Part shown: positions 1,106 through 64,000 of the stretch, piece by piece
Layout: every line of letters begins with the position of its first letter
Position numbering within the stretch: position 1 is the stretch's first letter
NCBI GenBank assembly: GCA_035653075.1
Contig: DASRCN010000067.1
Location: 13,233-77,232 of the forward strand
Source: Chthonomonadaceae bacterium
Lineage (GTDB): Bacteria; Armatimonadota; Chthonomonadetes; Chthonomonadales; Chthonomonadaceae
DNA: 64,000 nucleotides
Reading direction: 5' to 3'
Notes under the pieces: model-generated
The model's input: the letters and a program-made list of their open reading frames with translations, nothing else
Databases searched by the model: none
What the model was told of the DNA's origin: nothing
Made by a program: the position numbers and the translations under genes

Positions 1106-2485
1106 TCAGTGTAAGGTAATCCCGGCCTGCGGCTGGACAGGCAGGGCGGCTCCGGTCGCCGCCAGAATCTCATCCTGGGCCTTGTAGAGGGCGAGCAGGC
1201 TGTTGATATAGCCCACCCGCGCATTCCGCAACGTCGTCTCCGCATCGATCACCGGCAAGATTCCCGTCGCGCCTTGCTGATAGCCGATCTGGGCCAGTTC
1301 CAGAAGCGTGCTCGAGGGCGTGAGAATATCGGTCTGATACTGGCTCGCCATCCGGCGCGCCTGCTCGAAATCCGCATACGCCTGGGCCACCTGCTGCTCT
1401 AACTGCTGCTCGCTCTGCTGTTTCTGGGCTATGGCCTGACGCCGGCTGGCCTGCGCCGAGCGTATCGCCTCGCGCACGCTGCCGAAATCCAGCAAGGGAA
1501 ATCGGATCACGCCGATCACCGCGTAGAGCGGCTCCAGTAGTGACCGCTGGTAGTCGAGGGAGAGATCCGGCAGGCGCGCCGCCTGGGCCTGCTTCACGGC
1601 GTAGTCGCCGGCGCGCACCTGCTCCGCTGCGGCCAGAAGCAGCGGACGGTTCCGTTGGGCCTGGCGCAGCAGCTCCGGCAGGGGAGGCAGGTCGGGCAGC
1701 AGGGTGGGGGTGGTCGAGGCGGTCGTGAGGGTGTCGGCCAGGCGCACGGGCGCTTCGGGCGAGCGAGCCAGCAGCGCATTGAAGGCGACGAGGGCGGCAT
1801 GCGCGCTGCCCTGGGCCGAGACCGCGCTCTGCCTGGCATTGGCGACGTCGATGGAGGCGCGCAGCACATCGGTCCTGGGCACCTCTCCGGCCGTAAGCTG
1901 GGTCTGGGTGAGCTGGTAGACCTTCTCGACGTCGGCAAGGCTCTGCTGCGCGATCTGGTTCTGGGCCTGGGCGGCCACGAGGCTCCAGTAGGCATCTCGG
2001 ATCTGCTGCGCCAGCGTGAGGCTGGATTCCTCGAAGCGGTAGCGGGTAGCGTTGAGCTGGGCTCTGGCGCCGGCTGCCTGGAAATGGCGCTGGCCGCTGG
2101 TATCCAGGTTGCCGATGACATCGATGAAGACGTCGCTGTTCTGGTTGTTGACGGTGGGAGCGGACGTGTTACCGGTGGCGCCGGTGACGCTCAGGTCGAT
2201 GGGGGGGAAGGCGGCCAGGGAGCGGTAGGTACCGGCAGCGGCGGCGATCCCGGCGATCCCGGCGGAAGTATTGGGATTGCGTTTCAGGCCGATGCTGACG
2301 GCCTGCTCGACGGTGAGAGGCTCGGGAAGGGTATCGTCAAGGGGCGTTGGATTCGTCGGGGGCATCTGTGCCGAGACCGTCCGGCTCAAAAACACGGCCA
2401 GACAAAGCGCGGCACTCAGAACGAGGCCGCGCCGCCGTTTCGCCCGGAAAGATCGAATGTGGGTACTCCGTCTCTCCCCTGCCAT
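1106..2485 (-). CDS. TolC-like outer membrane efflux protein (OEP family)
   Basis: Signal peptide. Two repeated alpha-helical/beta-barrel halves with Q/A-rich coiled segments typical of the outer membrane factor family. Sits in the same locus as an RND MFP/permease pair and a two-component system. Confidence 0.7.
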   Translation of the reverse strand: MAGERRSTHIRSFRAKRRRGLVLSAALCLAVFLSRTVSAQMPPTNPTPLDDTLPEPLTVEQAVSIGLKRNPNTSAGIAGIAAAAGTYRSLAAFPPIDLSVTGATGNTSAPTVNNQNSDVFIDVIGNLDTSGQRHFQAAGARAQLNATRYRFEESSLTLAQQIRDAYWSLVAAQAQNQIAQQSLADVEKVYQLTQTQLTAGEVPRTDVLRASIDVANARQSAVSAQGSAHAALVAFNALLARSPEAPVRLADTLTTASTTPTLLPDLPPLPELLRQAQRNRPLLLAAAEQVRAGDYAVKQAQAARLPDLSLDYQRSLLEPLYAVIGVIRFPLLDFGSVREAIRSAQASRRQAIAQKQQSEQQLEQQVAQAYADFEQARRMASQYQTDILTPSSTLLELAQIGYQQGATGILPVIDAETTLRNARVGYINSLLALYKAQDEILAATGAALPVQPQAGITLH

Positions 2486-2605
2486 ATCTTCTTGATTCCC
2501 TCTCAGAACTCGGAAGCTGCGGGGAGTGTTGCCTGTCAGCGGAACGACAGCGGCCGGGCCTGGAGAGAACCCGGCCGGAAAAAGGATCGACCCCGCGCTT
2601 CCGGT

Positions 2606-14714: not shown

Positions 14715-14865
14715 GATGCGCCATGATGTATGGAAAAGCGCGATGGAATGGTTTGGCGATGGACGCAAGTCCTTCGCTTTTAGGCGCTCCCTTCGCGAGG
14801 CGGGCGCAAGCGCCGCTCGCTCGTGTCGCGCCGGGCGTGCTGCGCACACGCTTTCCAGATCGATT

Positions 14866-14896: not shown

Positions 14897-15033
14897 GGTG
14901 CGGTTCCGTTACCCCGCACCGATGGCGATCGGACTGGGGTGAGGTCCGTCCGCAGGACACCCAGCCGAAGGCTTCACAGCGAAACGCTGTAGTCCATCGT
15001 GAAGGCGTTTTTACCGGCAAATAGGGCAACTGG

Positions 15034-17494: not shown

Positions 17495-17560
17495 GTCGTT
17501 TTAGCCGGGCCATGCATTACCCGCCTGCGGGGCACTACCCGTTGCCCTGCGGGCGGGAAG
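17495..17560. repeat. Dispersed intergenic repeat, family A copy (GTCGTTTTAGCCGGGCCATGCATTACCCGCCT...GCCCTGCGGGCGGGAAG)
   Basis: Near-identical 5' module to the copy at 41424-41492. Related copies lie at 26377-26470 and 48852-48940. Confidence 0.5.
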
Positions 17561-23509: not shown

Positions 23510-24597
23510 CTTCCACTCCAGGCGCGCTTCCCAACAACTCTCCGCTCCCCTCCACGACGGCAGGCGGCTTCGGCGCCGGTATTCTCGGGCTGGGTCTGTG
23601 CGTGCCCGACCGTGTGGTCACCAACGACGACCTCGCGCGGATGGTGGACACCAGCGATGAGTGGATCACCACCCGCACCGGCATCCGGGAGCGGCGGATC
23701 GCCGGGCCGGAGACGGCTACGTCCGACCTGGCCGTCTCTGCCGCGCAGGAGGCGCTCAAAGATGCCGGGATAGAGGCCGCGCAGCTTGATCTGATCCTCT
23801 GCGCCACGACCTCCGGCGACTATGTCTGGCCGGCGACCGCCTGCGTGGTCCAGCAGCGGATCGGCGCCGTGCGCGCCGCCGCCTTCGATCTGGCCGCCGC
23901 CTGCTCCGGTTTCTGCTATGGCATGGCGGCGGCGGCGGGCTTTATTCAGACCGGGGCCATGCGGCGTATTCTGGTGATCGGCGCGGACATGCTTACCCGG
24001 CAGACCAATTGGGAGGACCGGGGGACCTGCATTCTCTTTGGAGACGGCGCGGGAGCGGCCGTCCTCGGCCCCTGCGCGCCGGAGGAGGGGATCCTGGCCT
24101 CCGTGCTGGGCGCGGACGGCAGCGGCGTGGATATGCTGCTCATTGCCGCCGGGGGCACGCGCCGGCCAATGACGCGGGAAGCCCTGGAAGAGAAAAAGAA
24201 TACCATTTTCATGCGCGGGCGCGAGGTCTACCGGTTCGCCGTCGAAGTCGTGCCGGAAGCGATCGAGGAGGCGTTGCGGCGCGCCTGTCTGCGCCCGAGC
24301 GACGTGAATCTTTTGGTGATGCATCAGGCGAATATCCGTATTCTCACGGCAGTCGCGGAGCGGATGGATATCCCGATGGAGAAGGTGTTCGTCAATATCG
24401 AAAAGTACGGCAACACGTCCGCCGCCTCTATCCCGATCGCCCTGGCGGAAGCCGCCGCGCAGGGGCGGCTGCACAAAGGCGATGTCGTCGTCACCGCCGG
24501 CTTCGGCGCGGGTCTGACCTGGGCCACCAATGTCTTGCGCTGGAACCGTGAAGAAAATAGACCTCACCCCTGTCCAATCGCCATCGGTGCGGGGTAA
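23506..24597 (+). CDS. fabH: 3-oxoacyl-ACP synthase III (FabH), with short N- and C-terminal extensions
   Basis: ...GILGLGLCVPDRVVTNDDL... Active-site Cys context AAACSGFCYG. ...HQANIRIL... and ...YGNTSAASIP... motifs. Confidence 0.95.
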   Translation: MTSTPGALPNNSPLPSTTAGGFGAGILGLGLCVPDRVVTNDDLARMVDTSDEWITTRTGIRERRIAGPETATSDLAVSAAQEALKDAGIEAAQLDLILCATTSGDYVWPATACVVQQRIGAVRAAAFDLAAACSGFCYGMAAAAGFIQTGAMRRILVIGADMLTRQTNWEDRGTCILFGDGAGAAVLGPCAPEEGILASVLGADGSGVDMLLIAAGGTRRPMTREALEEKKNTIFMRGREVYRFAVEVVPEAIEEALRRACLRPSDVNLLVMHQANIRILTAVAERMDIPMEKVFVNIEKYGNTSAASIPIALAEAAAQGRLHKGDVVVTAGFGAGLTWATNVLRWNREENRPHPCPIAIGAG

Positions 24598-24609
24598 CGG
24601 CCCCGCTAA

Positions 24610-25632: not shown

Positions 25633-26375
25633 TGAAATTACAGGATAAAGTCGCGGTGGTGACGGGCGCCGGGCGCGGGATCGGCCGGGCGATCGCGCTG
25701 AAGCTGGCGGAAGAGGGCGCGAAGGTCGTCGTCAACTACAGCCGCAGCGCCGAAGCCGCCGAGCAGGTGGTCGCGCAAATCCGCGCGCAAGACAGAGAGG
25801 CGATCGCCGTTCAGGCCGACGTGGCGGATGCGGCGCAGGTAGAAGCCCTCTTTACGGCGGCGCGAGAGCGCTTCGAGCGCATCGACCTGCTGGTCAACAA
25901 CGCCGGCGTCACCCGCGACAAATTGCTGCTGCGCATGAGCGAAGAGGACTGGGATGCCGTTCTGGATACCAACCTCAAGGGCGCCTTCCTGTGCGCTCGC
26001 GCGGTCGCGCCGCTCTTTCTAAAGCAGAAGGGTGGGGGCATCGTCAACGTCGGCTCGGTGATCGGTACGGTCGGCGGCGCCGGCCAGGCCAACTACAGCG
26101 CCTCCAAGGCCGGCCTGGTGGGCCTGACGAAGTCGCTGGCGAAGGAATTGGGCTCGCGGAATGTGCGGGTCAATGCGGTCGCGCCGGGATTTATCGAGAC
26201 CGAGATGACGGAGGTCCTTAAGCCCGACTATCGGGAGGCGATCCTGCGCCAGATTCCGCTGGGGCGCTTCGGGACGGTCGAGGATGTGGCTCGTGTCGTC
26301 GCTTTTCTGTGTTCCGAGGATGCCGCCTATATCCAGGGACAGGTGATCTCTATCAACGGCGGGCTGTTTATGTGA
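25632..26375 (+). CDS. fabG: 3-oxoacyl-ACP reductase
   Basis: SDR motifs TGAGRGIGRAIA (TGxxxGIG) and YSASKAG (YxxxK). Confidence 0.95.
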   Translation: MKLQDKVAVVTGAGRGIGRAIALKLAEEGAKVVVNYSRSAEAAEQVVAQIRAQDREAIAVQADVADAAQVEALFTAARERFERIDLLVNNAGVTRDKLLLRMSEEDWDAVLDTNLKGAFLCARAVAPLFLKQKGGGIVNVGSVIGTVGGAGQANYSASKAGLVGLTKSLAKELGSRNVRVNAVAPGFIETEMTEVLKPDYREAILRQIPLGRFGTVEDVARVVAFLCSEDAAYIQGQVISINGGLFM

Positions 26376-26376
26376 G

Positions 26377-26470
26377 GCGCCGGGCCATGAAATACCCGTC
26401 TGGGGGGCCTTCGGCCTGCGTAGCGAGCGGCGCTTGCGCCTGCCTGGCGAAGAACCGTCCTGCCGGACGG
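26377..26470. repeat. Dispersed intergenic repeat, family A copy, between fabG and acpP
   Basis: GCGCCGGGCCATGAAATACCCGTCTGGGGGGCCTTCGGCC... shares the GCCGGGC-ATG-AT(T)ACCC-GGCCTTCGGCC core with the copies at 17495, 41424 and 48852. Confidence 0.45.
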
Positions 26471-38164: not shown

Positions 38165-38200
38165 CCACCCGCTCGCTACGCGAGCGGGTGGTTTATTTCC
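38165..38200. terminator. Bidirectional rho-independent terminator (CCACCCGCTCGC-TACG-CGAGCGGGTGG then TTTATTTCC) between convergent genes
   Basis: Perfect 11-12-bp GC-rich stem with T-rich flanks on both strands. The same palindrome sequence recurs, split, at the ends of the element at 63297-63608. Confidence 0.6.
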
Positions 38201-38229
38201 TCCAAGCTGACAGCAGGTACACGCTATGG

Positions 38230-39387
38230 TCAGGCGAGGGCGTCGGCCAGGTCGGTCTCTTCCCACGGGAAAGCGGGGTTGCCGAAGTGGCCGTTGCGGG
38301 CGGTCTGGACGTACTGGATGCGCTCCGGGCGCAGCAGGCACAACCGCTCGATCATAGCGCGGGGTCGCAGATCGACCGCCTGGCGGACGCGCCGCACGAT
38401 CTCGGCGTCGGAGGCGCGGCCCGTGCCGAAAGTGTCCACCAGAACGCTGACCGGCTCGGCAACCCCGATGGCATAGGCAAGCTGGATCTCGACGCGATCG
38501 GCCAGGCCCGCCGCCACGATGTTCTTGGCGATGTAGCGGCCCGTGTAGGAAGCCGAGCGGTCCACTTTCGAGGGGTCCTTGCCGGAGAAAGCGCCGCCGC
38601 CGTGCCGCGCCGCGCCGCCGTAGGTGTCTACGATGATCTTGCGGCCGGTCACGCCGGTATCCGCCTGCGGGCCGCCGATGACGAAGCGGCCCGTCGGATT
38701 GATATAGTATTTGATATTGCCCTTGTTGACCCGATCGTACTTCTGCAGCACCGGCTTGACGACGTACTCCTGGACGTTCGCCTGCACGCTCTCCTGCGTA
38801 TGCGAGGGATCGTGTTGCGTGGAGACCACTAACGTTTCGATGTGATCGGGCCGCCCATCCGGGCCGTAGGCGATGGTCACCTGGGCTTTGCCGTCGGGCC
38901 GGAAGCCGAGCTCGGGATGGGCGCGGCGCGTTGCCGCCAACTGCCGGGTCAGGTCGTGGGCGATGGTGATGGGCAGGGGCATCAGGTGCTCGGTCTCATT
39001 GACGGCATAGCCGAACATGAGGCCCTGGTCGCCCGCGCCCTGCTCGTTGGGGTCCTCGCGGTCGACGCCCTGCGCGATGTCGGGCGACTGCTGCTGGATG
39101 GCGAGCATGACGCCGCAGGTATAGCCGTCGAAGCCGTAGTCCGTATGCGTATAGCCCACGCCCACGATGGTCTGGCGGACCACGTCGGCGATCTCCACGT
39201 AGGCTTCGGTGGTCAACTCGCCGCCGACCACGCACAGCCCGCGCGTCAGGAAGGTCTCCAGGGCCACGCGCGAGCGGGAATCTTTCTTGAGCAGCTCATC
39301 CAGAACGGCGTCGCTGATCTGGTCGGCGAGCTTGTCCGGGTGTCCTTCCGTAACGCTCTCCGAGGTAAACAGGGTGAAATCCGACAT
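38230..39387 (-). CDS. metK: S-adenosylmethionine synthetase
   Basis: [30 protein letters not shown]... is the canonical MetK N-terminus. ...[12 protein letters not shown]... and ...[17 protein letters not shown]... motifs. Start set at MSDF (the ORF track includes a 47-codon upstream extension). Confidence 0.95.
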
Positions 39388-39841
39388 ATCCAAATCGATC
39401 CTTTCTTCGCGGCCCGACCTCGCTCTGCGTTGAGTGGAGGCAGCTTCGGGCTGGAAAGTTCCTAATGGGCGCGCTGCCGGAAGAGCATGGCCCTCCTGCA
39501 GAACGGCGTCGTTCCTGATGCGCAAGCTTCGGTCTGCGTTCTGCCGTCGCCGGCAAATGCGGCGACAAACAAAAACCCCTTCTGCGTTGCAGAAGAGGTC
39601 GTAACGGCGGGTTAAAGGACGGTCTTCACGTAAAGGGACCGTGTCCTTGCCTTACGCTCTCTTATCTTGCAGTTGGCAGAATGTGCGACTGCCCGGATTT
39701 AGCACCTGCCCGGCCTCCTGGAAAAAGGCGGGTGGTTGTTGTGGTGTCGTCGGGCCGGTTCCCTCGACCACTCTCGATAAGAAGCTTCGCTATACGGTTG
39801 TCAGCGAAAGAGTATCATATTCCCTGTAGGAATGTCAATAT

Positions 39842-41423: not shown

Positions 41424-41492
41424 GTCGTTTTAGCCGGGCAATGAATTACCCGTCTCTAGGGCCTTCGGCCAACCGCCCTGCGGGCGGAAAAG
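41424..41492. repeat. Dispersed intergenic repeat, family A copy (GTCGTTTTAGCCGGGCAATGAATTACCCGTCT..GGGCCTTCGGCC..CCGCCCTGCGGGCGGAAAAG)
   Basis: Contains a GGCC-UUCG-GCC tetraloop hairpin and a CCGCCC-TGC-GGGCGG hairpin. Lies in the LysR/sdhC divergent region. Confidence 0.5.
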
Positions 41493-48843: not shown

Positions 48844-48851
48844 GCCCGTGT

Positions 48852-48940
48852 GGGCCGGGCACGGAATTACCCACCTGGGGGTCCTTCGGCCCGCGGGGCG
48901 TCTACTCGAACCTTCGGGCAATCCTACGGGCGGGAAAGTC
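48852..48940. repeat. Dispersed intergenic repeat, family A copy (GGGCCGGGCACGGAATTACCCACCTGGGGGTCCTTCGGCCC...CGAACCTTCGGGCAATCCTACGGGCGGGAAAGTC)
   Basis: Shares core blocks with the copies at 17495, 26377 and 41424. Contains two CCTTCGG tetraloop modules. Confidence 0.45.
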
Positions 48941-52215: not shown

Positions 52216-53725
52216 TGTTTGACAGCCGTGCGTTCTCGCATAGGCCCAAGGCGGTCCGCCTCGATCGCGCTCTGACGTTCTTATTGATCTTCTGTCTGGC
52301 GCTTGGCCTGGCGTCTGTTCGTCCGGCGCAGGCGCAATTGACCGACAGCGTTCTCTACAGCTTCAATAGCGCCAGCGGCGCCGCGAATTCAAGCTATACC
52401 ACCGGTCGCCTGGCCTTAGGAAAGGACGGCAACTATTACGGCACCACCGTTGGGGGTGGTCTTTATGGCTATGGCACGCTGTTCGAGGTCAGCCCTTCCG
52501 GCCAATTGACCGTCCTGCATAATTTCACCAATGGCAACGATGGCGCCAACCCTACGAACGGTGTCGTTTTCGACGGCAAAGGTAATCTGTATGGCGATGC
52601 GGCGAACGGCGCCATCGGCGGCTTCGGCGTTACCTACGAGTATTCGCCCGCAACGGATACCTTTACCGTCCTCTACCAGTTTCATGGCCCGGATGGCGAC
52701 GGCCCCAACGGCGTGATGCTCATCGGCAACAACCTGTATGGCGTGACATACTTTGGTGGAATCGGAAGCGGGCTGGGGAATGGTGTCGTCTACAAGATCG
52801 AGCTGCCCACCGCCACCCGGTCGCTGACCTTTAAAGTCCTGCACTATTTCTCCGGATCGGATGGAGAAAATATGTGGGGTCCGCTGGTGGAAGGCTCGGA
52901 CAAGTACCTCTACGGGACGACGGGCTTCGGCGCCAACGGAGAGGAACCGTCTTTCAAATCAGCCAGGATGGCCGCGTCTTCAACACGCTGCACACGTTCA
53001 GCGGGCCGGACGGCGCCTACCCGGTTGCCGGCCTGATCGAAGGCAGCGATGGCCTGCTCTATGGCACGACCGCCGATGGCGGCCCCAGTTGGACAGGCGC
53101 CAACACGGGCCATGGCACGGTCTTTCAGATCAGCCGGGACGGCGGTGTCTTCAATACCCTTCATGCCTTTGACGGCACGGATGGCGCGGACCCGATCAGC
53201 GCCCTGCTGCCGGCTACCGACGGGCTGCTCTACGGCACGACTCGCTATGGCGGCCCCGACTTCACCGGCAGCGCGACCGGCGGGGGCACGGCCTTTCAAA
53301 TGAGCCTGAACGGCAGCGTCTTCAACAGCTTCTACAGTTTCGGCGCTTCGAGCACGGACGCCGCCAACCCGATATGCGGGCTGCGGGAAGGGCCGGATGG
53401 CAACCTCTATGGGATCTCCGGTACGGGCGGAGCGAACGGCTCCGGCGCGGTGTATCTACTCCCGACCCAACTGCCGATCATCAAGGGCTTCAGTCCCACT
53501 TCCGGCAGCGCCTCGGCAGGCACGATCGTATCCGTCCGAGGCGTCAATTTGGAGAGCGCCAGCGCCATTACCATCGCCGGTGTCGCGCAAACAATCCTGA
53601 GTAAGACCGCCACAGCAGTCAAATTCAAACTCGCCGCGGCCACTCCGACGGGCAGTTACACCCTCTTCGTAACCACGCCCAACGGCACTGCGACCAGCGC
53701 CCGGACGTTTACCGTCGATCCGTAA
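52216..53725 (+). pseudogene. Frameshifted choice-of-anchor tandem-repeat (GloVer/Gloeo_Verruco repeat) protein with C-terminal IPT/TIG domain
   Basis: Signal peptide, then at least 9 repeats of the LYGTTxxGGxxGxGTVFxxxxxGxxxxL type. The reading frame shifts near 52938-52946 (GANGEEPSFKS... against the expected GANG-GTVFQISQDG, which continues in the +1 frame as ORF 52874-53725). C-terminal IPT domain (IIKGFSPTSGSASAGTIVSVRGVNL...). Confidence 0.6.
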
Positions 53726-61723: not shown

Positions 61724-63154
61724 TTATCGGGTCGGCTGCGCGAACGCGACCGGACTCCAGTCGTCCTGGCGATTCATGGCACGCACCCCGAAATAGTAAT
61801 CGTCTTTGGAAAGTCCGTGCAGCGTGTAGCGCGTCACGTTGCCGACCCAGAGCGAGCGTTCCCAGGACGGAGCGGTCGTCGATCGCCACTCGACGTAGTA
61901 GCCGGCCAGATCCGGCTCGGTATTGGGCGCCCACTTCAACTCCGTGTCGTTGGTCAGCTCGCGCGTGACGATCCCGACCTCCTGGGGCGTCGCTGGCGCC
62001 AGCGCCAGCATCGCCAGGGCCGCGGCGTTGACGCGCGTCACCTGCGCCAGGTAATCGAAGTCCAGGAACTGCGGCAGGTCGCCGTAGAGCACGCCACCTA
62101 CCGAGCGCACATTCTGATGCTGGTGCCGGAAGTCCTCGTTCGGCTCGGTAAAGCGCACGGCCGGATAGCCGCGCTCCTGGAAGGGGATCTGATCGCCGCC
62201 GCGCAGGAAGCGGTCCCGCCGGTAGACCAGGTTCACGTCAAAATGATGCACGTAGCGCGCGCCGACCCCCTGGATAAAGCGGGCCAGCTCCCGCGAGGGC
62301 GAATCGTTCTCGCCGCCGACGGCGCGCAGGATGCGCAGGCCCGTAGGCGTCTCTTCCGAGGGTACGCCTTCGGAGAAGACGCGCACAGAATGATTATCGT
62401 GGATGCCGTTGGCGCCGTGCGAGCTGCCGATGATGTCGTTATTGAGCATCCCCATGATCCGCCAGCCCTTCTCCTTCGCCCGGTCCGCGAAGTAGGTCGA
62501 GCCGTACAGACCTTGCTCCTCGCCCGCCACGCAAAGGAACACGATGGAGGCTCCATAATGGTATTGGGACATCACCCGCGCCATCTCCAGCACGGCGGCC
62601 ACGCCGGAGCCATCGTCGTCCGCGCCGGGCGCCTCCGCTGTGGGATCGTCGGCATTGCTGGCTCTGGAATCGTAGTGCGCGCTGACCACGTACACTCGCT
62701 TGTTGAGGTTGGGCAGGTCGCCGGGCAGGATGGCGGCGATGTTGGTGATGCGCACCGGATGCGGGATGCGCGGGCCGGCCGGCTGCTCGAAGGTCTGCAT
62801 CTCCACCTCCAGCCGCCCCCCGGACTGCGCCCGAATCTGCTGGAACTGGCTCAGGATCCAGTCCCGCGCCGCGCCGATGCCGCGCCGTGGATCGTCTTGT
62901 ACCGACAGCGTGTTGCGCGTATCGAAGGAGACCAGCTTGCGGATGGCGGCCTGGAGATAGTAGGAGTCGATCTCGCGGACGATGCGCCGGATGTCCGTCT
63001 GGGTCGCCTCCAGCATCGGACGCGGCGCCGTTTTCGACCTGGGGGGGCGCGCGACCACCCGGCCCTGCTGTCGGCCCTGCGCATACACGGCAAGGGAGAC
63101 GGCGCAGAGCCCAGCCACTCCAAACAGAGAAAGGCGTCGTTTTAAGTCTTTCAT
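61724..63154 (-). CDS. M28-family zinc aminopeptidase with C-terminal fibronectin type III-like domain, secreted
   Basis: Signal peptide. Metal-ligand blocks ...VVSAHYDS..., ...DDDGSGVAAVLEMARV..., ...GEEQGLYGS.... C-terminal FN3-like ...YYVEWRSTTAPSWERSLWVGNVTRYTLHGLSKDDYYFGVRAMN.... Confidence 0.85.
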   Translation of the reverse strand: MKDLKRRLSLFGVAGLCAVSLAVYAQGRQQGRVVARPPRSKTAPRPMLEATQTDIRRIVREIDSYYLQAAIRKLVSFDTRNTLSVQDDPRRGIGAARDWILSQFQQIRAQSGGRLEVEMQTFEQPAGPRIPHPVRITNIAAILPGDLPNLNKRVYVVSAHYDSRASNADDPTAEAPGADDDGSGVAAVLEMARVMSQYHYGASIVFLCVAGEEQGLYGSTYFADRAKEKGWRIMGMLNNDIIGSSHGANGIHDNHSVRVFSEGVPSEETPTGLRILRAVGGENDSPSRELARFIQGVGARYVHHFDVNLVYRRDRFLRGGDQIPFQERGYPAVRFTEPNEDFRHQHQNVRSVGGVLYGDLPQFLDFDYLAQVTRVNAAALAMLALAPATPQEVGIVTRELTNDTELKWAPNTEPDLAGYYVEWRSTTAPSWERSLWVGNVTRYTLHGLSKDDYYFGVRAMNRQDDWSPVAFAQPTR

Positions 63155-63296
63155 GCCTATAGTTTCTCGATAGATTGCTTATCCCCCTCCTTGCATCGCC
63201 CAGGCGTGTACCTGCCGTTAAGCTGCAAGAGATCGAACCCCCCGCTCGCAAAGCACTACCCCAAGCGTGTCCTTATTCCTAAGCTCCTTAATATGT

Positions 63297-63608
63297 CACC
63301 ACCCGCTCGCTACGCGAGCTAGAGCCACAGAGCACACAGAGGAAAAGCCAATGCGAGAAAAGCAAGAAGACAAGAAAGAGGCTGGTGCAAATAGAGATGC
63401 CTGTGCCGCTGCTATCCACACAAGGAGAACACAGAGAAAAACCAACCCTAGAGAAGAGAGGCCTTTCTCTGTGCTCTCCCTCGTGATGAGGAAGAGGCAA
63501 TGGCTTGCTAATTTGGTATAGCCTGCTTTCTTTTCTCTTTTGTTTTTCTCGCATTGGCTTTTCCTCTGTGTGCTCTGTGGCTCTAGCGAGCGAAGCGAGC
63601 GGGTGGTG
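63297..63608. mobile_element. MITE-like element: about 70-85-bp terminal inverted repeats flanking about 140 bp, inserted within a copy of the CCACCCGCTCGCTACGCGAGCGGGTGG palindrome
   Basis: Left arm CACCACCCGCTCGCTACGCGAGCTAGAGCCACAGAGCACACAGAGGAAAAGCCAATGCGAGAAAAGCAAGAA... Right arm ...TTTTCTCGCATTGGCTTTTCCTCTGTGTGCTCTGTGGCTCTAGCGAGCGAAGCGAGCGGGTGGTG. Both strands yield mirror-image ORFs (84 and 116 aa), an artefact of the inverted repeat. No transposase present. Confidence 0.5.
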
Positions 63609-63702
63609 AAAATCTCTGCAGCCTGACAGCAGGCACACGCTTGAGGTAGAGCCTGGCGAGTGGGTGGTTTAATCTTCGGCAAACTGGCGGTAGGTACAGG
63701 CT

Positions 63703-64000
63703 CAGGTCAGGGGGAATTCGGTGATGCGCAGATGGGCGCTGCCGTAGGGGATCAGCGTGATCGGTTCCAGAGGCGTATCGGTAGAAACGGGACTTTGGGG
63801 CAGGGGGCCGGCAGAGTTCAGCTCCAGGGTCCACTGTGGCAGCCGTTGACCTTGAGTTGTCAGGACGACCGGCGGGGCCTTCGGGTCGAAAGGAATGGGG
63901 CTGACCGGCGTTTCCTGGATAGAGAAGGAGGGCGCGGCGGGGTCAAGCGCCAGGCCGTAGTTCCAGGGGGTCGTGGGAAGAATTTCCCAATCGGCGCGGG
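63703..64000 (-). CDS. Partial CDS (C-terminal about 99 aa only; N-terminus beyond window), beta-sandwich tail possibly of a glycoside hydrolase
   Basis: Manual translation of the minus strand: ...RADWEILPTTPWNYGLALDPAAPSFSIQETPVSPIPFDPKAPPVVLTTQGQRLPQWTLELNSAGPLPQSPVSTDTPLEPITLIPYGSAHLRITEFPLT*. Strong GC3 codon bias, open to the window edge. Confidence 0.45.

Follow-up and report, generated by a model that had tools for sequence, protein, structure and literature searches.

A family of long hairpin-forming intergenic repeats, probably mobilised in trans, in an uncultured Chthonomonadaceae bacterium

In the genome of an uncultured soil Chthonomonadaceae bacterium (Armatimonadota), two genes on the minus strand are separated by a 547-nt spacer that is almost entirely filled by a nested palindrome. 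The locus lies close to the right-hand end of the 64,000-nt stretch of DNA analysed here (the window), so that only the 3' end of the upstream gene, encoding a GH127 beta-L-arabinofuranosidase-like protein, is included; the complete gene is found in locus L001 (4160-6043). The downstream gene encodes an M28 family metallopeptidase, whose start codon (63154) is 47 nt from the outermost repeat module (63201). A promoter scan of the spacer found none. The core of the nested structure is a near-palindrome of 310 nt (63298-63607), which a preliminary description, made from the sequence of the window, had read as a MITE-like element inserted into a palindromic terminator-type repeat. The features of the locus are the following.

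61724-63154, minus strand: downstream flanking gene, M28 family metallopeptidase
63183-63199: possible third, decayed 'a' motif (tentative)
63201-63297: left outer layers of the nested palindrome
63201-63237: outer R-type module, left
63238-63249: second 'a' motif, left, CCCCCCGCTCGC
63250-63297: inner R-type module, left, in a variant (...CTTATTCCTAAGCTCCTTAATATGTC) common to locus L016
63298-63361: left terminal inverted repeat, containing the 'a' motif, an atypical 8-nt variant and a 42-nt perfect arm
63299-63310: 'a' motif CCACCCGCTCGC, in the left terminal inverted repeat
63312-63319: atypical variant ACGCGAGC of the left arm, where the family consensus is TCGCTCGC
63320-63361: 42-nt perfect arm TAGAGCCACAGAGCACACAGAGGAAAAGCCAATGCGAGAAAA, in the left terminal inverted repeat
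63362-63543: interior, a degenerate palindrome whose left/right asymmetry is kept across copies
63424-63439 and 63464-63479: inner hairpin of the interior, 16 bp
near 63450: central loop of the interior
63544-63607: right terminal inverted repeat
63544-63585: 42-nt perfect arm, right side
63586-63600: GCGAGCGAAGCGAGC, that is GCGAGC-GAA-GCGAGC, in the right terminal inverted repeat
63595-63606: complement of the 'a' motif, GCGAGCGGGTGG, in the right terminal inverted repeat
63608-63701: right outer layers of the nested palindrome
63608-63655: inner R' module, right, TGAAAATCTCTGCAGCCTGACAGCAGGCACACGCTTGAGG...
63656-63667: complement of the second 'a' motif, right, GCGAGTGGGTGG
63668-63701: outer R' module, right, abutting the stop codon of the upstream gene
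63702-64000, minus strand: 3' end of the upstream flanking gene, GH127 beta-L-arabinofuranosidase-like, stop codon at 63702

The near-perfect terminal inverted repeats of the preliminary description are real, with boundaries that had to be redrawn: the outermost 14 nt of the two arms are perfectly complementary (ACCACCCGCTCGCT and AGCGAGCGGGTGGT), the 8 nt inside them contain three mismatches (ACGCGAGC against the complement TCGCTCGC), and the innermost 42 nt, TAGAGCC...GCGAGAAAA, are perfect. A 26-mer from the arm occurs exactly twice, once on each strand, where shuffled sequences lead one to expect 0 occurrences. The centre, thought to be about 140 bp of unique sequence, proved to be an interior of about 180 nt whose halves are about 65% alike as inverted arms around the 16-bp hairpin. 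Fold prediction, which had been proposed as a check, yields a single hairpin for a 326-nt stretch, with -207 kcal/mol for the plus strand (z = -18.9) and -211 kcal/mol for the minus strand (z = -17.5). The element is small and non-coding, and contains only the mirror-image phantom reading frames that had already been pointed out, in which HHPLA..RATEHTEEKPMREKQ can be read on both strands; the phantom reading frames used as queries against a protein database, in an attempt at a census of copies, returned one spurious match only.

Inverted symmetry extends beyond this core from 63204 to 63701, with 162-nt arms (63204-63365 and 63540-63701) that are 77% complementary, and the segment 63180-63710, folded as DNA, forms one nested hairpin (-163 kcal/mol, z = -16.3). 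The added layers are made of a module of about 61 nt (a-R), found on both sides of each copy, in which R comes after the 'a' motif (CCACCCGCTCGCT.CGCTCTACCCCAAGCGTGTRCCTGCTGTCAGGYTGCAGAGAWTTTCA) and whose first 20 nt or so are the same as the end of the element itself. The window copy has two a-R layers on each side, and decay of both the 'a' motifs and the R modules is further advanced in the outer layer than in the inner one. These layers, built of a related 61-nt module, are older and more decayed than the core, which lies on their axis of symmetry.

The element is not confined to this spacer. A 24-mer from the arm matches 17 metagenome stretches, 16 of which align to the element in full, truncated or interrupted form. 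The proteins flanking these loci belong to the same NCBI metagenome-assembled genome (MAG; HZT4xxxx) and the same run (SRR5579884) as the window, and two JGI metagenomes contain the identical strain with identical sequence, so that all 17 copies come from one population; the 24-mer has no match in GTDB representative genomes, and the species is therefore not among them. Thus the search for further copies that had been recommended revealed 16 more at other intergenic sites of the same MAG, giving a family of at least 17 intergenic loci, and the description of a non-coding inverted-repeat element of MITE size holds. The copies lie between convergent, tandem or divergent genes, 15-190 nt from the gene ends and mostly 15-100 nt past a stop codon, with no bias of orientation relative to the flanking genes (two are between divergent genes). 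Pairwise identity among them is 93-98% in the ends and 76% on average in the interior, the 42-nt inner arm being the most conserved stretch, above the CCACCC end. The mismatches of the interior are conserved between copies, not corrected, and its asymmetry and subfamily variants are common to different loci (for example, the window and L018, or L014 and L010), which suggests that the palindromes did not form independently of one another, the copies being derived from diverged master elements. Some copies have T-rich tails (L013, L014), and the copies in L012 and L015 reach the end of the retrieved locus sequence, which in L015 is also the end of the contig. Other elements treat the copies as ordinary DNA. 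In L006, a higB/higA-like toxin-antitoxin pair (1781-2503, minus strand) takes the place of the left half of the copy, with the breakpoint at the central loop, and the copy in L010 is split by an insertion sequence (IS) that separates its CCACCC end from the rest and has the ends GAGGGTGTTATGAAC and GTGCATAACACGCTC and a 4-bp target duplication, CTAG.

L010, 7430-8290: IS5-family IS of about 860 bp, at the CTAG between core and end

The ends of the element were defined by aligning 12 full copies and, in all, 28 arms. The consensus end, ACCACCCGCTCGC-TTC-GCTCGC-TAGAGCCACAGAGCACACAGAGGAAAAGCCAATGCGAGAAAAGCAA, is mirrored exactly at the opposite end; the left end, CCACCCGCTCGC-TTC-GCTCGC-TAGAGCC, is the exact complement of the right end, with no direct repeat between the two, and the sequence GCTCGCTTCGCTCGC within it is an internal direct repeat (GCTCGC-TTC-GCTCGC), not a local palindrome. 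The terminal inverted repeat measures 66-69 nt, starting with ACCACCCGCTCGC, followed by two GCTCGC units, CTAG and two CACAGAG units, and closing with GGAAAAGCCAATGCGAGAAAAG, and, counted from ACCACCC, it is perfect in L003, L005, L013 and L016. Nearly every copy has the CCACCCGCTCGC ends and GCGAGCGAAGCGAGC, and only the IS-split copy of L010 and the truncated copies are devoid of a CCACCC end. The left junction reads GCTCGC, not GCGAGC, in 10 of the 12 full copies, the GCGAGC variant being limited to the left arm of the window copy and one arm of the L006 copy. The duplicated GCGAGC(GAA) of the preliminary description is therefore present as sequence but is a part of the terminal repeat of every copy, and its appearance as a target duplication stems from the atypical variant in the left arm of the window copy. 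No direct-repeat target duplication was found in any copy, including the 12 full ones in the alignment, at any candidate boundary. Immediately beyond the ends, all copies have inverted and not direct flanking sequence, perfectly inverted over 16-33 nt in L010, L013, L014, L017 and L019, where copy-specific variants are mirrored on both sides.

A second genome scan, in which the 18-nt 'a' pattern ACCACCCGCTCGCTNCGC was used and the distribution over phyla was sampled among the matches listed, gave mostly single, chance-like matches in coding DNA. Among the matches listed there are also at least six true terminus loci from three taxa: at least four in one Verrucomicrobiae chromosome and at least one each in a Nitrospirae MAG and in Pelovirga terrestris (Desulfuromonadota). 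At these loci the motif continues as ...TTCGCTC(T/G)CTAGAG..CACAGAG..CACAGAGGA..., which means that the first 50 nt or so of the element recur in genomes of Verrucomicrobiae, Nitrospirae and Desulfuromonadota among the matches listed; the CCACCC and CACAGAG units form one terminus conserved across phyla and hence belong to the element. The four Verrucomicrobiae elements are full, with 50-nt terminal inverted repeats around a non-palindromic interior of about 120 nt, and are nested in an unrelated outer palindromic module with no clear duplication; their version of the terminus contains a local palindrome, GCTCTCTAGAGAGC. Being kept as one unit both within the family and in other phyla, the CCACCCGCTCGC ends and GCGAGCGAAGCGAGC are, on this comparative evidence, part of the element, not a split target.

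Several further observations concern sequences akin to this terminus or its surroundings. The outer module of the Verrucomicrobiae composite (L097, L112, L119, L120; OY970179.1) ends in repeats of the heptamer GCCCGTG/GGGCACG, more of which lie beyond it, making up a second short-period motif system that is built like the GCTCGC and CACAGAG units. On a contig from another metagenome (L007, 300-365), tandem units of 9-10 nt (CGCAAAGGA..., CACAGAGTA CACAGAGCA CACAGAGGAAAAGCC) occur without the CCACCC motif, and the CACAGAG units may be distributed independently and more widely. Plasmid, phage and viral collections contained nothing relevant beyond a small hairpin with the same stem, AACCACCC[GCTCGCTTCGCTCACT]GGGGTGGTT, on an IMG/VR contig (L138, 399-424), which has 24 nt in common with the Pelovirga version of the terminus and, from its sequence, may be another collapsed relative.

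Within the window, the ends of the element have a counterpart in a much shorter structure.

38165-38228: short relative, a 27-bp palindrome followed by a partial R' module
38165-38191: 27-bp palindrome, CCACCCGCTCGC-TAC-GCGAGCGGGTGG
38192-38228: partial R' module

It is located between a small convergent gene and metK (38230-39525, minus strand), upstream of which a SAM riboswitch is recognised (39659-39783, minus strand; Rfam RF00162, 66.8 bits). The segment 38163-38193 scans as a terminator on both strands, as had been proposed, and the palindrome is probably the shared terminator of metK and the small convergent gene; the long element in the window gave no hit in the terminator scan. Also in agreement with the preliminary description, the outer ends of the window element match the two halves of the palindrome, its first 21 nt being identical to 63299-63319 and its last 12 nt to 63595-63606. 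The interpretation then offered was that a smaller MITE (TAGAGCC...GGCTCTA) had transposed into a pre-existing REP-type palindrome, CCACCCGCTCGCTACGCGAGCGGGTGG, duplicating GCGAGC; a transposase specific for such a target would account for the halves at all copies, and IS1397 and ISKpn1, specific for REP loops, provide a precedent. The 21/21 identity is what this scenario would produce, as are the GCGAGC direct repeat at both junctions of the window copy, the position of the short palindrome relative to the R' module, which is that of the long elements, and a 42-nt inner arm that is better conserved than the CCACCC end. It is contradicted by the GCTCGC left junction of 10 of the 12 full copies, which implies no duplication, by the complementarity of the consensus ends, and by the right junction, which would require an extra, unmirrored GCGAGCGAA. 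Moreover, the CACAGAG motifs accompany the CCACCC end in three other phyla too, and 'a'-pattern matches without this extension are, among the matches listed, single, mostly coding and chance-like. Finally, for 17 long elements about 235 kb of this genome contain a single free palindrome, the reverse of the ratio that a common REP target would give. We regard the insertion of a smaller MITE into a REP-type palindrome as very unlikely. The partial R' module places the short palindrome in the structural position of a long element, and a deletion between the two GCGAGC repeats of a window-like copy would give exactly the sequence found at 38165; as far as the sequence can tell, it is most likely a relative of collapsed or minimal form that acts as a terminator, deletion between the GCGAGC repeats being the route by which it would have arisen; for this single pair of sequences the reverse course is less likely.

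The very stable fold of the element, the location of most copies shortly past a stop codon and the terminator-like behaviour of the short relative on both strands could also be accounted for by a functional structured RNA or cis-acting hairpin (terminator, attenuator or mRNA stability element) that is kept by selection at each locus and is not mobile; a few changes affecting both arms preserve pairing, for example G>A with C>T in the 'a' motif of L010, L017 and L019. Such an origin is highly improbable on the evidence of the copies themselves. No Rfam 15 family reached the gathering score in the window or in the 16 other loci, the inner hairpin of the window element giving only weak, chance miRNA-like matches; compensatory change is confined to 5 of 104 pairs, and the covariation term (+2.27) is unfavourable; and G-U columns are about as frequent as A-C mismatch columns, so that neither strand is favoured. 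The random orientation of the copies, including the two between divergent genes, the outcome of the terminator scan for the long form and the conservation of interior mismatches all speak against this alternative as well.

A cognate transposase, which the preliminary description had suggested looking for, was found neither beside any copy nor among the genes annotated with Pfam in the roughly 60 kb that surround three copies. No IS with matching ends is present in the 64-kb window and about 235 kb of loci, nor did one with these ends appear in plasmid or phage collections; about 45 kb further along two contigs contain no more a, R or core sites and no transposase domains. An all-against-all comparison of the open reading frames of all loci detected no recurring real protein near the copies. 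No empty site of the element was found: the nearest orthologues of the M28 gene (70% and 65% identity) are preceded by another gene, across a spacer of 33-80 nt and with no synteny, and the two JGI metagenomes, being of the identical strain, show no presence/absence polymorphism. A full-text literature search for the sequence motifs returned unrelated primer matches only. A tRNA-derived origin, an integron attC site, a CRISPR, a retron and a CsrB-like GGA decoy RNA were also considered and had no structural or contextual support.

The flanking modules bear on how the copies came to be where they are. Left and right flanks within a copy are 0.68 alike, barely more than flanks of different copies (0.64), and the R variants are shuffled among loci, the left R of the window copy being the left R of L016 and its outer right R the right R of L016; together these point to recombination as a process that is also involved. 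Recombination could even be the whole explanation, with a-R as a REP/BIME-like host repeat and the core copied by homologous recombination or gene conversion through the a/R homology arms, no dedicated transposase being required. The invariable a/R context of the copies, the shuffled R variants, the missing target duplications and the fruitless transposase search are all consistent with such spread. Against it, the initial dispersal of a/R modules to 17 or more unrelated intergenic sites would still need a mechanism, the occurrence of the same 50-nt terminus in four phyla with unrelated flanking modules would be left unexplained, and free a/R recipient sites are almost absent. We consider it quite unlikely that recombination accounts for the family by itself.

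On balance, the feature is probably one copy of a non-autonomous, scar-less, hairpin-forming (MITE/REPIN-like) repeat family that is mobilised in trans. Its mobility we infer from dispersal alone. Under this reading, the conserved ends are probably what the trans-acting enzyme recognises, and the copies would descend from diverged master copies, as suggested by their interior asymmetry and common subfamily variants. Insertion appears to leave no target duplication and places every copy exactly on the axis of further palindromic a-R layers, which suggests that the apex of related hairpins might be the place to which the element is copied, either through a site-specific enzyme or in the form of a folded single strand. 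An HUH/RAYT-like tyrosine transposase would be the first guess for this enzyme, and a site-specific recombinase would be the other economical guess. Alternatively, the whole multilayer composite may move as one unit; with no uninterrupted R-R' palindrome seen in about 235 kb of this genome, nested insertion and movement of the composite look alike. Recombination between copies would add to the mosaic.

A broader proposal can be formulated around the terminus of about 50 nt, ACCACCCGCTCGCTTCGCTC-TAGAG-CACAGAG-NN-CACAGAGGAA. It might define an undescribed, horizontally spreading class of scar-less hairpin transposon, present in at least four phyla (Armatimonadota, Verrucomicrobiota, Nitrospirota and Desulfuromonadota), that inserts precisely at the apex of other palindromes, including its own relatives, and so builds nested palindromes, driven by a candidate single-strand or site-specific enzyme. 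We put this forward as a speculation that is unlikely to hold.

By analogy with the Correia and ERIC elements, the palindrome of about 500 nt probably hinders read-through from the GH127 gene into the M28 gene, as a strong barrier formed by the hairpin, or offers a site for RNase III-type processing, and the element probably uncouples or processes the transcripts of neighbouring genes. Practical consequences arise in genome analysis, since such palindromes break assemblies (the L012 and L015 copies are at sequence ends) and phantom reading frames derived from the element can be mis-annotated as proteins (P0121).

The window contains at least three other families of short repeats, one of them with the sequence GCCGGGCMATGAATTACCCGYCTG..GGGC, which indicates a genome rich in REP-like repeats.

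17495-17533, 26370-26408, 41424-41462 and 48845-48883: other short repeats
14900-14946 and 24560-24606: other short repeats
14791-14821 and 26422-26452: other short repeats

Three copies of a repeat with a 171-nt period, about 74% identical, lie inside a coding region (52943-53345) and probably correspond to a repeated protein domain. On a related Chthonomonadaceae-like contig (L134, 5440-5680), an unrelated nested palindrome, GGGCGACTAAAGTCGCGGC ... GCCGCGACTTTAGTCGCCC, is found downstream of the M28 orthologue.

Comparison with known palindromic repeats places the family between established classes. The BIMEs of Escherichia coli and the NIMEs of Neisseria (dRS3 and RS modules) are alternating REPs or cassette arrays, and they resemble the present family in that a short motif, here the 12-nt 'a', punctuates variable modules, here the R variants and the core, that are combined differently at each locus. 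They differ from it in sequence, with no known similarity, and in arrangement: the motifs of the present family are direct on one side and inverted on the other, resulting in a giant nested palindrome. Insertion sequences that target REPs (IS1397, ISKpn1, and IS110/IS1111-type elements in REP or attC hairpins) likewise present a mobile element at the centre of a palindrome. These, however, are autonomous insertion sequences; IS1397 and ISKpn1 produce duplications of 3-4 bp, and insertions are greatly outnumbered by the REP targets. The present element, by contrast, encodes nothing, leaves no scar and has 17 copies to one free palindrome.

Bacterial MITEs, such as Correia of Neisseria, ERIC/IRU of enterobacteria, RUP and Nezha, are non-coding elements of about 100-400 nt with long terminal inverted repeats. 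They have the potential to form a hairpin over their whole length, occur in dozens of intergenic copies that fall into subfamilies, and are often co-transcribed with their neighbours. The window family is similarly small and non-coding, with terminal inverted repeats and many dispersed intergenic copies, but none of its copies has a target-site duplication, the search of loci, plasmids and phages brought to light no cognate IS sharing its ends, its terminal inverted repeats (66-69 nt) are unusually long, and every copy is on the axis of further related palindromic layers.

[quoted passage not shown] The likeness to the window family lies in two conserved inverted ends around a variable spacer, in an almost exclusively extragenic location, in the lack of target duplication and in clusters and higher-order arrangements. 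The unit of the window family, on the other hand, is 310 nt, a local palindrome in the end is seen only in the left arm of the window copy, one L006 arm and the Verrucomicrobiae version, and no RAYT gene was seen in the sequence around the copies. In addition, the inheritance of REPIN-RAYT systems is described as mostly vertical, whereas the terminus of the window family is common to four phyla among the matches listed.

The element thus lacks a defining property of each of its two closest models, namely the target duplication of a MITE and the self-palindromic REP and length of about 100 bp of a REPIN. If the reading preferred here holds, it represents a previously uncatalogued repeat family that forms palindromes of about 500 nt and fills whole intergenic spacers in uncultured Armatimonadota. 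Repeats of such a kind are fairly ordinary in genomes, and at present the family extends the list of bacterial palindromic repeats in a descriptive way without being surprising. What sets it apart from textbook MITEs is the combination of a terminus common to distant phyla with missing target duplications, which could lead to a new transposase-substrate pair.
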